Assembly (NCBI GenBank): GCA_963825395.1
Contig: CAWGTQ010000016.1
Span: 388,269 to 452,268, forward strand
Direction of reading: 5' to 3'
DNA: 64,000 nucleotides
Origin: an uncultured Acidobacteriota bacterium
GTDB taxonomy: Bacteria > Acidobacteriota > Terriglobia > UBA7540
This document shows, piece by piece, positions 30,330 to 63,378 of the stretch (within the stretch, counting starts at the first letter, position 1; each line of letters opens with the position of its first letter). Position numbers and translations under genes: made by a program. The notes under the pieces are model-generated. The model ran no database searches, had not been told where the DNA came from, and saw only the letters and a list, made by a program, of their open reading frames with translations.

Positions 30330-30605
30330 GCGGGCTGGCGCAGAGACGCTTTTCAATCTCTGCGTCTATACTCTGGCTAGTGTGGGGGAGACGCAGACTC
30401 CTACCAGCACGGAGTCTGCGCCAGCCCCGCGTGTTTTTTTAGCAAACGTTTTGCACGTAATGTAGGGCTGAACGGCGTCCGGCCCGCAAGCACCAGCGAA
30501 CGTAGCGCTGACCTTGAGGTCAGCACGTGCCGACCTCAAGGTCGGCGCTACAATTTCCTTGCGGCTCCGCCGCGCTGCGCTACCCGCTTCCAATCTCCTG
30601 GTGAG
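30330..30605. repeat. composite ~250-nt repeat, copy A (contains a REP-B at 30502-30551)
   Basis: cgggctggcgcagagacgcttttcaatctctgcgtcta...gctacccgcttccaatctcctggtgag is collinear with copy B, apart from a ~45-nt extra segment. Confidence 0.75.
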
Positions 30606-30649
30606 TAGCAGGTAGCCACGGTCAGCGCTTTTCTGACCGTGGTCTTTTC

Positions 30650-30925
30650 CCATGCGCGATACCCTGGCGGCAGGCGCACGTAATCAATCTGGACGGGGCA
30701 CGCCGGCACCGTCGGCTTCTCCAGGGCAAAATTGTTGTAACTCGACCACCTCCATTCTTCAGGCCGCTTCACGAGCCCCTTCTTAAGCAGAAACCCCAGA
30801 CGCTGCCGCGAAGCCTCCAGCACCTCGATGAGCAAAGCATACTCCGATTCCTTGCATCGCCGAAAGCGCCGACGGAGATGCACACGGACAAAGAAGATCA
30901 CGTCCGTGTGTCGTAGGCGATGCAC
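30650..30925 (-). pseudogene. C-terminal fragment of an IS200-like/COG1943 Y1 (HUH) transposase
   Basis: The translation contains the typical C-terminal signature GLVKRPEEWRWSSY. No HUH or catalytic N-terminal part lies upstream, and the ORF tail runs into the repeat. Confidence 0.6.
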
Positions 30926-36687: not shown

Positions 36688-39219
36688 TCAAGTTCTTAGC
36701 TCAACGATCGTCGCTCCGCCACCGCCTTCTTGGGGCGGGGCCAAGTAGAATTTCTCAACATGGGGGTGATGAGAAAACATCTCGTGCAGGGTTCTTCGCA
36801 GAATGCCCTTGCCGTGGCCGTGAATAATGCGCACCCGCGAGCGTCCACCCAGAAAAGCCTGGTCGAGATATTTATCCACGCGCTCGCGGGCCTCCTCCGC
36901 CGTATTTCCGATGACATTGAACTCCTCCGGGACTTCTTCGCTGCGCGATGTGGCCACCGTCGGATCCGGAGCGCCTCCCGGCATCAGAGGCCTGACCTCT
37001 TCCTTGCCGACGCGCATTTTCAATCGTCCCACGGACACTTCCACTAGCCCGCCCTCAAGCAGGGCCGTTACCGTTCCGGGTGTGGAAACACCCATCAATT
37101 GCACACGGTCACCGACCGCCATCGGCCGTACAACAGTGGGTTCTTGGGGCGCCGGAGCGGCCTCACCCAGCGCTTCCAGTACCCGAGTGTTCCATTCCTC
37201 CCGCGCCTCCCGCACCAAGCCGGTGGCTTTCCGCTCGCCCCGCGTCACCACCTTGACGGGCGCTGCTTGTCTGCGCAACTCCTCCAGTGATTGCTCCCAC
37301 GTCTTCGCGTACTGCCGCAAGGTGTCGTCCAAGCGGGAGTCAAGCTCTCGCAGCTTGGCGCGGCGGTCCTGCTGGAATTGCCGCTCCAATTGTTCTGCGT
37401 GTTTTTCCAGCTCCTGCTTTTCGATTTCCAGCGCCTTCAGATTGTGTTCCATTTCGGTGCGTTGCTGGTGCAGACCCGCCACCAGCGCGGCGGCCTCGGC
37501 GTCGGCCGGATGGAGCAGGGACCGTGCCTTCTGCACGATGCCAGGTTCCAAGCCCAATCGCGCGGCGATATCCAGCGCGCTCGATTTTCCCGGCAAGCCG
37601 ACGAGCAGGCGATAGGTGGGTTCCAGCGTCGCTTCATCGAACTCCATCGCCGCGTTCACGGCTTCCGCGGTTTCGGCGGCGTAGGCTTTCAGGCGCGAAT
37701 GGTGGGTGGTCACCATGGTCATAGCGCCGCGCTGGCGAAAGTGTTCGAGAATGGCCACGGCCAGCGCCGCGCCTTCGTTGGGCTCCGTGCTGGCGCCAAT
37801 CTCATCGAGCAGCACCAGATCGTTTGGCCCTGCCACTTCCGCCATGGCCTCGATGTTGGTCACGTGGGCGGAAAAGGTGCTGAGGCTCGCCGCAATGGAT
37901 TGCTGGTCGCCGATGTCCGCCAGCACGCGCCCGAACAGTGGCAGCTTGACTTCGTTGGCGGGCACGGGTATTCCCGCCTGCGCCATCAGTGCCACGATGC
38001 CCAGCGCCTTCAGCGCGACGGTCTTGCCGCCGGCGTTCGGTCCGCTGATGATCATCAGGGTTTTTGGCGCTTTCAGTTCCAGGTCAAGGTGGATAACCCG
38101 TGAATGCCCAGTGCTGAGGGCTAATAATAGGAGTGGGTGGCGAAACCCGTTCAGACAAATTGCCCGCTCCGGGCGAATCTCCGGAATGCAGCAGTCAAAT
38201 TGTTTGCTGAATTCGCCCTTGGCGAAGGCCCAGTCGATTTCGCCCAAAATGTCCGCTGCGCGCCTCAAGTCTTCGCGACGTTCTTGCAGTTTGCGCGTGA
38301 ACTCCCCCAGGATGCGCTGGACTTCCGCGAACTCGCGGTCTTGCAATTCCACCAATTCATTATTGAGAGCCAGCGTTTCCAGGGGTTCGATATAAACCGT
38401 GGCGCCGGAGGAACTGGACCCGTGCACCACGCCCTGCACGCGCCGTTTTTCCTCCACGCGGACGGGGATGACGAAGCGGTCATTGCGGATGGTCACCACG
38501 GCGTCCTGAAGCACGGTATCCTGGGAATAGCGCCGCAGCATCCGCTCCAGGCTCGACTGGATTTCAAGCTTGGCGCGCTCGATAGCCCGGCGAATCCGTC
38601 CCAACTCTTGACTCGCGGAAGAGTCCACGGTGCCATCGGGATTGATCTTGCCCGCCAGCTCCGTCACCAGGCTGCGGAAATCCGGCAGTGCGCGCGCCAG
38701 TTCCGCGAGGCGCGGCGTGGCTGACGGTGCTGCAGAGCCTGCCCGGAGCGGAGCGAAGGGGGCGAAAGGCGTTCGGCCTCCTTCCCCCGGGTGCGTCGCT
38801 GCGGGGCCGAGCGGCGCGCGGCCCCCTGTGCCCTCGTGTTGGGCGGCGCGCGGTGCGTCGCCATGCGCGAACGTGCGGTACATATCGAGGCCAGCCCGCG
38901 CCACTTCCACCAACGCCATGATCTCCGAGGCGGCGAGCGCCAGCCCTTCCACCCGCAATTTGTCCAGCAACGGGCCGGGGTCGCACAGTCCCGCCAGGCT
39001 GGGGCGAGCGCCCTCGCGTAAATACTCGCGTGCCTCGCCTGCCAATTCCAAATCGCGCCGAATCTTTTCCAGATGCGTGTGCGGTTCAACTCGCTCCAGC
39101 CGCGGCTCGCTGATGGGGCCGGAAAGATAACGGTGCAGCAGCTCAATAACGGCAGGGAACTCCAGCACGTCGCGGGAGAAGGGATCAATCGTCCTGTGCG
39201 TCAAGTCCGAGTCAGCCAT
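36688..39219 (-). CDS. mutS2: endonuclease MutS2 (with C-terminal Smr domain)
   Basis: This 843-aa ORF has the Walker A motif ISGPNAGGKT, DEIGASTEP, and the C-terminal Smr segment VRIIHGHGKGILR. Confidence 0.9.
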   Translation of the reverse strand: MADSDLTHRTIDPFSRDVLEFPAVIELLHRYLSGPISEPRLERVEPHTHLEKIRRDLELAGEAREYLREGARPSLAGLCDPGPLLDKLRVEGLALAASEIMALVEVARAGLDMYRTFAHGDAPRAAQHEGTGGRAPLGPAATHPGEGGRTPFAPFAPLRAGSAAPSATPRLAELARALPDFRSLVTELAGKINPDGTVDSSASQELGRIRRAIERAKLEIQSSLERMLRRYSQDTVLQDAVVTIRNDRFVIPVRVEEKRRVQGVVHGSSSSGATVYIEPLETLALNNELVELQDREFAEVQRILGEFTRKLQERREDLRRAADILGEIDWAFAKGEFSKQFDCCIPEIRPERAICLNGFRHPLLLLALSTGHSRVIHLDLELKAPKTLMIISGPNAGGKTVALKALGIVALMAQAGIPVPANEVKLPLFGRVLADIGDQQSIAASLSTFSAHVTNIEAMAEVAGPNDLVLLDEIGASTEPNEGAALAVAILEHFRQRGAMTMVTTHHSRLKAYAAETAEAVNAAMEFDEATLEPTYRLLVGLPGKSSALDIAARLGLEPGIVQKARSLLHPADAEAAALVAGLHQQRTEMEHNLKALEIEKQELEKHAEQLERQFQQDRRAKLRELDSRLDDTLRQYAKTWEQSLEELRRQAAPVKVVTRGERKATGLVREAREEWNTRVLEALGEAAPAPQEPTVVRPMAVGDRVQLMGVSTPGTVTALLEGGLVEVSVGRLKMRVGKEEVRPLMPGGAPDPTVATSRSEEVPEEFNVIGNTAEEARERVDKYLDQAFLGGRSRVRIIHGHGKGILRRTLHEMFSHHPHVEKFYLAPPQEGGGGATIVELRT

Positions 39220-39376: not shown

Positions 39377-39536
39377 AAAATTCGGTCGCATGTTGGGGTG
39401 ATGGTTGTTGCACCCTTGGTGAGTCGTGGGTAGGATGGGCTTTGTGATCTACCTCGACCACAACGCGACCACGCCCATACTGCCGGAGGTACTGGATGCG
39501 ATGATGCCGTACCTCACGACGGAATGGGGCAATCCG

Positions 39537-39584
39537 TAGGGCCGAACAGCGTTCGGCCATGGACCAGCGTTGCTGGTCCCTACA
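39537..39584. repeat. REP-C doublet inserted in the desulfurase gene
   Basis: It reads gtagggccgaacagcgttcggccatggaccagcgttgctggtccctac. Confidence 0.75.
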
Positions 39585-44398: not shown

Positions 44399-44447
44399 GT
44401 AGGGCCGAAGAGCCTTCGGCCCAAGGCCGAGCGCTGCTCGGCCCTAC
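44399..44447. repeat. REP-C doublet inside the dndC remnant
   Basis: It reads gtagggccgaagagccttcggcccaaggccgagcgctgctcggccctac. Confidence 0.75.
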
Positions 44448-61724: not shown

Positions 61725-61964
61725 TAAGTATTCAACCAAAGAGAAGCTTTCCCCCTTTGAAACGATGCGGGGGTTGCTGTCACTACTCAAACGAAAACCG
61801 ACGGGCCCGATGCCAGGACCATACTCCCCTCGATATTTTGCAGGTCCGTTCGGGCGCTGGACCCCGTCGCGAGCTGTTTCCAGTGAGCTTTCGAGGGATC
61901 TTAGTTAGGCTGAAGATTGATGTTTTGCAACGGGTCGAATCCTCAGAAGGTGGAGAAAAGAACG

Positions 61965-62657
61965 ATGCGAAATCTAATGGGAAATCATTGGAACCTGTTG
62001 GTGGTGGCCCTTCTTTCTTGTGCGCCAATGGCTTTCGGTGATCAAGTTACGATGACGCTCCAGCCAATCCCTGGTGGCCAACTGAACCTGGGCGGCGTTT
62101 ACACCGGCGCGTATCCCTTCTCAATAGACGGCAGTACGATGATCACCACAGCGGTGTGCGATGATTTCAACGACCAGGTCTACGTTGGTGAGTCTTGGAA
62201 GGCGAATGTCTACTCATTTTCCAGCCTGGACGCCAGTACGCCCACTGTATTGTTTGGATTAAACGGCTCCGCCAGCCAATGGCAGGATTACGACGAGGCA
62301 GCTTGGCTGGTTGAGCAAATGTACAAACCGGTCAATGCGGCTTCCGCGTCCAATATCAGCTACCCCATCTGGGGTATTTTCGAGCCGAGCGCCTTGCGCA
62401 ATGACTCTTCGGCGCATGCGTGGATTAATTCGGCAGCAAGCCAAACCTATTCGACAGGCGAATTTTCCAACTTTGAGATCCTCATGCCCATCAGTGGCAC
62501 GCAGCCGTTCGGTGTTGGTCGGCCGCAGGAATTCTTGGTCGAGACTCCCGAGTCATCTGCCCCAATCCTTTTCGGTGCGGACTTATTGGGCTTGGCCACG
62601 CTGACTTTCTTATTCCGTCGGCGCACTTCTAGAACGCAAAGCCAGCCGCAGCGGTAG
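61965..62657 (+). CDS. PEP-CTERM sorting-domain protein
   Basis: The ATG at 61965 follows GGTGGAG. The signal peptide is LLVVALLSCAPMAFG. The C-terminus reads VETPESSAPILFGADLLGLATLTFLFRRR, that is a PEP-like motif, a TM helix and a basic tail. Confidence 0.75.
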   Translation: MRNLMGNHWNLLVVALLSCAPMAFGDQVTMTLQPIPGGQLNLGGVYTGAYPFSIDGSTMITTAVCDDFNDQVYVGESWKANVYSFSSLDASTPTVLFGLNGSASQWQDYDEAAWLVEQMYKPVNAASASNISYPIWGIFEPSALRNDSSAHAWINSAASQTYSTGEFSNFEILMPISGTQPFGVGRPQEFLVETPESSAPILFGADLLGLATLTFLFRRRTSRTQSQPQR

Positions 62658-62689
62658 GCCCGAACGGTGTTCGAGCGGAGGATGTAGAA

Positions 62690-62737
62690 GTAGGGCCGAG
62701 CGGCGCTCGGCCTGGGCCGAATGCCATTCGGCCCTAC
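62690..62737. repeat. REP-C doublet, left flank of RAYT
   Basis: It reads gtagggccgagcggcgctcggcctgggccgaatgccattcggccctac. Confidence 0.8.
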
Positions 62738-63067
62738 AATTGGCCGAGGGCCCCTCGGCCCCACGTTCTCCGGCATCACGAAACCGCTATTCATCAGGAT
62801 GTGCTCTCCCTTCGGCCCCAAAACCCACAAGATGCCGTGAAGATGATTGGGCATCACTATGAAGGCGTCTAATTCAAGTTCTCGCCGGATGCTTGCCGAT
62901 TCCAGCCACTGCTCCCGTGCAAACCTGCCGCAGTCATTTTCTTCCGTGCGATCTTCCACCACATGGCCGAAGATGCAATTTCTGTTGAATGCGCAGAGCG
63001 TAACAAAGTATGCCCCCGGGAGGGCGTAGTCGTATTTCATCGACGAGATCGAATCGCGTTCTAGCAT
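62738..63067 (-). mobile_element. REP-associated tyrosine transposase (RAYT, Y1/HUH), truncated after the HUH motif
   Basis: The N-terminus reads MKYDYALPGAYFVTLCAFNRNCIFG...LDAFIVMPNHLHGILWV (the HUH motif is HLH). No C-terminal catalytic Tyr region is visible, and the ORF continues into REP sequence. Confidence 0.7.
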
Positions 63068-63069
63068 TT

Positions 63070-63117
63070 GTAGGGCCGAATGGCATTCGGTCTAGGCCGA
63101 ACCCCGCTCGGCCCTAC
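63070..63117. repeat. REP-C doublet, right flank of RAYT (inverted relative to the left copy)
   Basis: gtagggccgaatggcattcggtctaggccgaaccccgctcggccctac is close to the reverse complement of 62690-62737. Confidence 0.8.
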
Positions 63118-63378
63118 GAGTGGGCGAGCGTCGTTCGCCCCCACACCTTCGCGGGGAGTATGTACACCCATGACGCTAAAGGGGAAGCGTTTTCCGCCGC
63201 CTGCAAAGTCTCGCCCTTCCAGACCCGTGGTGAGAAATCACGGCTGGGGGGCACCCCGGGTTGCGCGAGCGTTCCCACACTCACTATACTTTATGCTTTT
63301 CGGGGATTTGGCATTACACGTACTCGCACCCGCTAGCGCGGCTTATCCCCCGATCCTCAGCAGGAAGGAGTTCGTTCG

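Follow-up and report, generated by a model that had tools for sequence, protein, structure and literature searches.

A probable decayed REPtron remnant with an in-frame REP array, from a likely Terriglobia lineage

Introduction

What is left of a RAYT gene when a short minus-strand reading frame with the N-terminal features of the family lies between two inverted REP doublets, and how was the rest of it lost? This question is raised by a locus in a 64-kb stretch of DNA (the window), which covers positions 388269-452268 of contig C16 in a draft assembly (G000) of 7.21 Mb in 86 contigs, with 58% G+C and an estimated completeness of 90.6%. The original prediction had described the locus as a truncated and inactive RAYT, directly bounded by two doublets of its own REP family, and had called this the classical RAYT/REP arrangement. 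From what is established for TnpA-REP and IS200/IS605 enzymes, intact relatives of the gene considered here are expected to bind the GTAG foot with its hairpin in single-stranded DNA, to cut there and to rejoin the DNA via a tyrosine.

The REP-C repeat family

The unit of the repeat family at the locus, REP-C, has 23 nt (GTAGGGCCGA-N7-TCGGCC) and combines a GTAG foot with an 8-bp G+C-rich hairpin. The foot is followed by GGCCGA...TCGGCC, and the 8-bp stem opens with the pairs G-C, G-C and C-G. With up to two mismatches allowed, 10 matches were found in the window compared to 0.06 expected by chance. The genome-wide count that had been suggested gave 71 matches in 59 clusters, ten of the 71 being those of the window, and a reversed-pattern control in the genus scan returned 0-2 matches. 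Five of the 71 genome matches lie within about 1 kb of the remnant. This several hundred-fold enrichment at the locus is what one would expect of a RAYT with its REPs. Genus-wide the expectation is borne out only in part: 29 same-genus genomes have between 0 and 99 REP-C copies each, with no clean relation to the presence of an intact cognate or same-clade RAYT, a comparison confounded by the incompleteness of the MAGs; three genomes (G001, G021, G017) carry 71-99 copies although they have no same-clade RAYT match.

Doublets make up only about 8 of the 59 clusters in G000, and the remaining clusters are singlets. A pair of inverted REPs that forms one long hairpin is the REPIN, reportedly described by Bertels and Rainey in 2011 as a replicating doublet population. 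The singlet-heavy makeup of REP-C fits a decaying population, which is short of a proof. Outside the remnant locus the repeats are mostly extragenic: the open frame spanning a REP-C cluster has a median of 208 aa, compared to 408 aa at random positions of G000. Genes with a clear in-frame copy are mutS2, one for a Ser/Thr kinase, and two ORFs that are PolB-like and PriA-like, respectively.

As a side observation, copies read in frame within long ORFs were noted at C26:3042-3089, C20:143967-143989, C28:68684-68706 and C47:90382-90404 of G000; the host ORFs, named by sequence motifs only, are Ser/Thr protein kinase-like (VGPNGVRPGPNAVGPY), PolB-like (840 aa), PriA-like and a TPR protein. Other repeat families in the same genome outnumber REP-C, with approximately 60-120 copies each by 14-mer counts, e.g. 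GCACGCACTCCAAAGCTTCGCTCCG, TGTAGGTCCGCGGCTTTT, GTAGCGCGGACCTG and GTAGCGCCGACCTT.

The reading frame of the remnant

The minus-strand frame encodes both the RAYT N-terminal signature YDYALPGAYFVTLCAFNRNCIFG and the motif MPNHLHGIL, as had been predicted. The HUH motif MPNHLHG falls on frame residues 72-78 (H-L-H is encoded at 62837-62845), and its column is invariant in the homolog alignment (A3). The proposed limits of the ORF, 62738-63067, call for revision. There is no stop codon at 62738, and the frame is open over 62447-63067 (206 aa), reading through three REPs as NVGPRGPRPIVGPNGIRPRPSAARPY. Within this mechanical frame only residues 10-129 belong to the RAYT and the REP array; the part beyond them is antisense to the neighboring gene. 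The other end, the ATG at 63067, is taken up below.

The Pfam search of the 206-aa frame gave no match. The best-scoring family is REP_Tyr_transpos of NCBIfam (NF047646), which aligns residues 19-86 with profile positions 11-68 only, at 22.5 bits compared to a curated cut-off of 80 bits; the anticipated alignment to a RAYT profile is thus present in position and low in score. The WQ motif and the YIxxNP tyrosine were sought in the window copy by comparison with more than 200 homologs and both are absent, in accordance with the earlier statement that the catalytic Tyr region is missing. Since WQ and the catalytic Tyr are gone, the window copy is a pseudogene of the RAYT family and not a functional member, and it cannot cut or join DNA. 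No second copy of the remnant gene was found in the genome, where the nearest paralog is 34-39% identical.

The 5' side of the locus carries repeats in close succession. The outermost one is a variant REP hairpin at 63118-63144, GTGGGGGCGAACGACGCTCGCCC on the minus strand (hairpin z = -2.5), a stem variant which prolongs the direct repeat D1. It is followed by the 5' flanking REP-C doublet at 63070-63117, a REPIN-like pair of inverted 23-nt REPs with a 2-nt gap, and homologous arrays lie upstream of the gene in L052, L055 and L056, three loci of relatives. The second doublet, at 62690-62737, is indeed inverted relative to the first, as described before: the two are 91% reverse-complementary over 53 nt. 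Both 48-nt doublets fold as hairpins, well beyond shuffled controls (z = -5.1 and -4.7).

Intact homologs and their linker

A homolog search with residues 1-95 returned 234 proteins with 60-82% identity, the best of them with 75-82%; several are named RayT by JGI, and the source names of two homologs contain "Terriglobia bacterium". The intact homologs have 200-270 aa. After the HUH half they contain a variable stretch of translated REPs (VGPNGVRP, RPNAVRPY, AERRSAL, GRTPFGP), then continue with PPMRPxSLASWAxGFKS...WQEDYFERIIRDE...YILSNP, and end about 25-30 aa after the NP of YIxxNP. On these proteins, too, REP_Tyr_transpos scores below the cut-off of 80 bits (49-69 bits), and it matches in two stretches, profile positions 11-68 and 70-135. 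The insert thus falls precisely on the boundary that separates the HUH sub-domain from the remainder of the core.

The residues W204, Q205, Y225, N229 and P230 are invariant in an alignment of 49 homologs. A catalytic Tyr within WQxxYxEH was considered and ruled out in favor of YIxxNP by these invariant columns and by the literature, in which the catalytic residues of the E. coli TnpA-REP are Y115 and N119, the tyrosine being the Y of YIxxNP (PMC6006769).

Among the close-clade proteins 73 possess the HUH motif, and 50 of the 73 also have WQ and YIxxNP in frame. REP-C-derived peptides (VGPNGVRP, PNAVRPY, AERRSAL) are present in the linker of 46 of these 50 intact proteins, the other four having a REP-free linker of approximately 70 aa. 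The HuH-to-Tyr distance in the intact proteins ranges from 93 to 154 aa with a median of 123 aa, and several other members of the clade have a frameshift after the REP array. Same-clade genes were found in 5 of 24 same-genus genomes searched: three are intact with internal REP-C, the copy in G010 has a stop codon, and G003 has an intact gene (L060) whose linker is free of REPs but whose flanks carry REP-C.

For the structural comparison P0001, one of the intact homologs, was used in place of the remnant. Its AlphaFold model, computed with the 49-sequence alignment, has a confident core in residues 20-100 and 170-245 (pLDDT 86-98), and the REP-encoded residues 105-165 have a pLDDT below 50, which indicates that the REP-encoded stretch would be a disordered loop. 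The top Foldseek match of the model is 4ER8_A, the E. coli TnpA-REP bound to a REP hairpin, with a probability of 1.00 and a target-normalised TM-score of 0.61. IS200/IS605 transposases come next.

Comparison with intact loci at the DNA level

For the DNA-level comparison two intact reference loci, L052 (JGI) and L055 (ENA/NCBI), were aligned with the window. Upstream of the homologs' start lies CCGAACGCGATTCGGCCCCGCCG-ATG, and the counterpart in the window is CTAGAACGCGATTCGATCTCGTCG-ATG. The original start was probably not at 63067, as initially assumed, but at the ATG at 63040, because the homologs align from the latter and the upstream segment matches theirs. In the alignment with L052 and L055 the segment 63041-63067 on the minus strand, ATGCTAGAACGCGATTCGATCTCGTCG, would then be a pseudo-leader, a degenerate copy of the REP-like sequence in front of the homologs' start. 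The N-terminal half of the RAYT extends over 62768-63040 on the minus strand, contains YDYALPGAYF in addition to MPNHLHG, and is approximately 88% identical to L052 at the nucleotide level over 266 nt of the HUH half.

A further lesion had been overlooked. Directly after ATGAAATACGAC, at 63028/63029, 45 nt are absent in the window. The deletion is in frame, is bounded by two TACGAC direct repeats, and takes out LRIHHRRSIRLTHYD with the conserved N-terminal HHRRSIRL motif. This loss also bears on the question whether the frame could be maintained as an HUH-only protein, a REP-binding regulator or competitor without nuclease-ligase activity. A frame open over 206 aa and an HUH half that is still about 78-82% identical to the intact proteins would speak for such a role, but without the HHRRSIRL motif and the C-half the product lacks about half of the confidently folded core, the frame runs on into the antisense of the neighboring gene, and truncated forms of this kind did not turn up as a conserved family. 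We consider this reading extremely improbable.

The second point concerns the 3' side of the remnant. Intragenic REP 1, at 62742-62764 on the minus strand, deviates from the unit by one mismatch and is translated as VGPRGPRP. The doublet at 62690-62737, read on the minus strand, contributes REPs 2 and 3, translated as VGPNGIRP-RPSAARPY, and a degenerate fourth REP, GTAGGCCCGAACGGTGTTCGAGC, lies at 62654-62676 on the plus strand, homologous to the last internal REP of L052. Taken together these repeats align with the internal in-frame array of L052 over 108 nt. The doublet itself shares 47 of 48 nt with its internal counterpart in L052, compared to 87.5% over 48 nt for the 3' flank of that locus. 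By this alignment, the left doublet is part of an intragenic four-REP array that spans 62654-62764, and not a 3' flank.

This argues against the reading as a classical REPtron, in which a truncated ORF at 62738-63067 would be bounded by flanking doublets and the left doublet would be the original 3' flank. Inverted REPs on both sides are the textbook layout of a REPtron (PMC3733652), and the two doublets do bracket the HUH remnant with 91% reverse complementarity. There is, however, no stop codon between the ORF and the left doublet, the doublet and its neighbors match the internal array of L052 far better than its 3' flank, and VGPNGIRP and RPSAARPY are in the same frame as in the intact proteins. 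We leave this reading a slim chance. The predicted arrangement stands as far as the 5' REP doublet is concerned; the array on the other side is intragenic and in frame, which is the hallmark of TnpA-REP subclass 2.4 (PMC6006769).

Similarity to intact RAYT genes reaches as far as the GTAG of the fourth REP and breaks off there, at about 62654; this is the deletion junction. Also missing from the window copy are the stop codon and 3' REPs of intact genes. To place this in context, six intact or near-intact same-clade loci (L052, L055/L057, L056, L058, L059, L060) are flanked by REP-C, and the 3' REP flank that the window has lost is present in all six loci examined. These flanks, together with the local enrichment, uphold the claim that an inactive RAYT lies beside its cognate REP family. 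In intact relatives from metagenomes and from the same genus REP-C precedes the gene, is usually also present within it in frame, and either follows the stop codon or overlaps it; the stop codon of the RAYT is the TAG of the downstream REP in L052, L055 and several other loci. No flanking genes were shared between the window and the loci of relatives or metagenomes, and neither an empty nor an intact orthologous site was recovered among them.

The junction was further bounded with help of the convergent gene. A PEP-CTERM-like ORF at 61917-62657 on the plus strand obtains its TAG stop (62655-62657) from the GTAG of the fourth REP. Its in-genome paralog, likewise a PEP-CTERM-like exported protein (C49:11341-12043), is 86% identical. 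The similarity of the pair ends at approximately 62623, and the divergence is confined to the last 10 or so codons, which in the window copy run into the degenerate REP.

One must keep in mind that a junction next to repeats could originate in the assembly, the real genome containing an intact RAYT and the assembler having joined the internal array to sequence past the 3' REPs. The draft nature of the assembly, with 86 contigs and 90.6% completeness, and the near-identity of the short repeats in REP arrays lend this some plausibility. On the other hand the same copy carries the independent 45-nt deletion with its TACGAC direct repeats, the junction follows a unique degenerate REP and does not lie within a repeated unit, the contig runs on for tens of kb on both sides, and half-RAYT remnants that break at REP arrays recur (C37:56386-56514 and L068, described below). 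An artefact of this kind seems quite improbable to us.

Paralogous RAYTs with their own REPs

The arrangement is not restricted to REP-C. Paralogous RAYTs with 34-50% identity have a different REP family of their own, with copies ahead of the gene, in the same linker (in frame) and either at the stop codon or overlapping it, as seen at C16:64573-65355 in G000, at L062-L073 in relatives and at L085-L087 in metagenomes. The G000 paralog (minus strand) is intact with approximately 260 aa, possesses HUH and WHENYYEH...YICTNP, and lies about 323 kb upstream of the window. Its REPs (GTACGGGCAYGCC-type; GTACGGGCAYGCCAYGGCRTGCCC) occur upstream, over the stop codon and at two in-frame internal sites, one of which is a five-fold PVQPVDGM repeat. 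L086, from a Chloroflexi MAG, has the 28-nt palindrome GTAGGGGCGCAGCATGCTGCGCCCCTAC upstream, in the linker (VGAQHAAPL) and over the stop codon. Double-foot REPs, GTAGGGGC...GCCCCTAC, are present in L064 and L086.

Two further broken copies were noted. At C37:56386-56514 in G000 (minus strand) a C-terminal half-RAYT remnant with an 86-aa open frame has an in-frame REP doublet at its beginning, and REP-C is present about 360 nt from it, at C37:56004. This fragment was considered as the lost half of the window remnant and rejected; it belongs to the family of the 34%-identical paralog, the one with the GTACGGGCA-type REP. In L068 (G017, C14:288362-288631) the N-half of a RAYT ends right after the HUH motif (AIFVLPG), and some 350 aa of unrelated sequence follow in the same frame; the break is thus located where other genes have their REP array.

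An intact paralog able to mobilise REP-C, for which a search had been proposed, did not appear: tblastn with intact homologs against G000 found no intact same-clade RAYT, just the 34%-identical paralog and the C37 fragment, and with 90.6% completeness in 86 contigs an intact copy could sit in the missing part. The assembly contains 36 RAYT/Y1-type matches altogether, a side observation; among them are five separate IS200-like copies with identical Pfam matches, unrelated to the remnant locus.

Reconstruction of the locus

We propose that the locus is, in all likelihood, a decayed REPtron remnant of the TnpA-REP subclass 2.4 or RAYT group 4 type. As read from the alignments, its anatomy is that of a 5' REP doublet, followed by the N-half of the gene, the intragenic in-frame REP array and the deletion. 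Intact relatives would encode an HUH/Y1 single-strand DNA endonuclease-ligase that, by analogy with the E. coli TnpA-REP, may recognise its own REP by the GTAG foot and the hairpin. REP-C, the cognate REP in this case, lies upstream, downstream (often giving the TAG stop) and inside the gene as a variable in-frame array, which presumably forms a disordered loop after the HUH strand and ahead of the helix that leads to WQ and the YIxxNP tyrosine.

Still present in the window copy are the 5' REP doublet, the half of the gene with HUH, and the four REPs of the internal array. One deletion removed the 45 nt with the HHRRSIRL motif between the TACGAC direct repeats. The other took all that follows the internal array in intact genes: WQ and the catalytic Tyr, and with them the stop codon and the REPs on the 3' side. 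Most likely the C-half was lost by recombination from REP to REP, by slippage or by excision, involving the internal array and the 3' REPs. We infer a REP-mediated loss because the junction lies exactly at a REP foot and because the C37 and L068 remnants break at the array, too. The approximately 59 REP-C loci of G000 are probably a non-replicating relic population, as no intact cognate RAYT was found in the assembly.

A more far-reaching idea is that the intragenic REP array acts as a built-in break point, and that subclass 2.4 RAYTs inactivate themselves through excision of a half-gene. The RAYT, or recombination between REPs, would then remove the half-gene between the internal array and a flanking REP, and the products would be half-gene remnants at REP arrays as in the window, at C37:56386-56514 and in L068. 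We regard this as unlikely, albeit conceivable. The recurrent half-RAYT breaks at internal arrays hint that the arrays make the gene fragile.

Relation to known systems

The presence of cognate REPs in frame within RAYT genes was entertained as an undescribed feature and dropped, as it had already been stated for subclass 2.4. Quentin, Siguier, Chandler and Fichant (2018, PMC6006769) reported in-frame REPs inside subclass 2.4 genes between HuH and Tyr, modelled the insert as a peripheral extension, gave the key motifs as NH[IFV]H, WQ and YIxNNP, and described the REPs as either long or "double foot". The subclass belongs to the TnpA-Y1 superfamily (PMC6006769) and equals RAYT group 4 of Bertels et al. 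2017 (PMC5581495). REPs inside RAYT genes are not mentioned by Di Nocera et al. 2013 (PMC3733652), Nunvar 2010 (PMC2817692) or Bertels 2017 (PMC5581495). The intragenic REP feature is thus known, and the copy in the window is a decayed representative, probably from a Terriglobia lineage.

The assignment to subclass 2.4 rests on matching its published description, which it appears to fit with motifs that are near and not exact. Shared features are the HUH/Y1 core, GT[AG]G-footed long REPs that flank the gene (of the long canonical type, with three G-C pairs at the stem base), in-frame REPs between HuH and Tyr, an insertion of variable length between beta3 and alphaC, a short conserved N-terminal motif, an apparent lack of a C-terminal tail domain, and WQ in the intact relatives. 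In contrast to the published members, the window copy is a pseudogene without the WQ/Tyr half and with an N-terminal deletion, the HuH motif is NHLH compared to NH[IFV]H, and the Tyr motif of the homologs is YILSNP compared to YIxNNP, with YICTNP and YIMNNP also occurring among them. The median HuH-Tyr distance in the clade is 123 aa compared to the published 88, and the lineage here is probably Terriglobia, judged by the source names of two homologs, whereas the paper reports mainly Cyanobacteria, Bacteroidetes "and various phyla" (PMC6006769).

The E. coli TnpA-REP (YafM/RayT; 4ER8; Nunvar 2010, PMC2817692; Messing 2012, PMC3479197) has the HUH and YIxxNP motifs, a GTAG-footed hairpin substrate and gene-flanking REPs in common with the clade, and it is the best structural match of the modelled intact homolog. 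It differs in having 165 aa and no intragenic REPs, and at the sequence level the resemblance is marginal (E = 0.19). Di Nocera et al. 2013 (PMC3733652) reported GTAG REPs that lie within genes in frame, and stop codons provided by GTAG feet. The likeness to such repeats and to Rickettsia palindromic elements (PMC3733652) consists in REP-C copies in frame within ordinary genes, in TAG stops supplied by the GTAG foot, and in 48-nt doublets that keep the reading frame; the difference is that the host gene here is the cognate transposase itself. The TnpA of IS200/IS605 (IS608, ISDra2) has the HUH/Y1 fold in common with the clade and presumably acts on hairpin ends of single-stranded DNA by the same chemistry. 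Unlike these elements, the remnant comes without near-identical multiple copies, without tnpB and without subterminal IS ends.

By itself the locus adds little, being a pseudogene of a described RAYT subclass. It may be of use for annotation: REP peptides within a RAYT ORF are normal in this lineage, and REPs beside a RAYT fragment are not automatically the ends of an element. The apparently orphaned REP-C population, set beside relatives that keep the enzyme, could offer a natural comparison of REP decay after loss of the RAYT.

Other sites in the window

The further REP-C sites named in the original prediction were recovered. The doublet in the dead desulfurase is located at 39536-39584, where it inserts a TAG in the NifS-like frame after ...TTEWGNP, and the doublet at 44399-44447 was confirmed. 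The mutS2 gene at 36688-39219 (minus strand) contains degenerate REP-C hairpins in frame, as had been noted, and is intact with 843 aa.

The window also holds the second transposase fragment that had been reported at 30650-30925. It is a RAYT fragment; its ORF extends over 30548-30925 (minus strand) and is internally deleted. It is 57% identical to the intact RAYT at C63:58449 and represents another type: ...SRQRLGFLL is joined directly to KKGLVKRPEEWRWSSY, the region from HUH to Tyr being gone. The fragment is of a different RAYT subclass and has a C-terminal WRWSSY tail, as in C63:58449.
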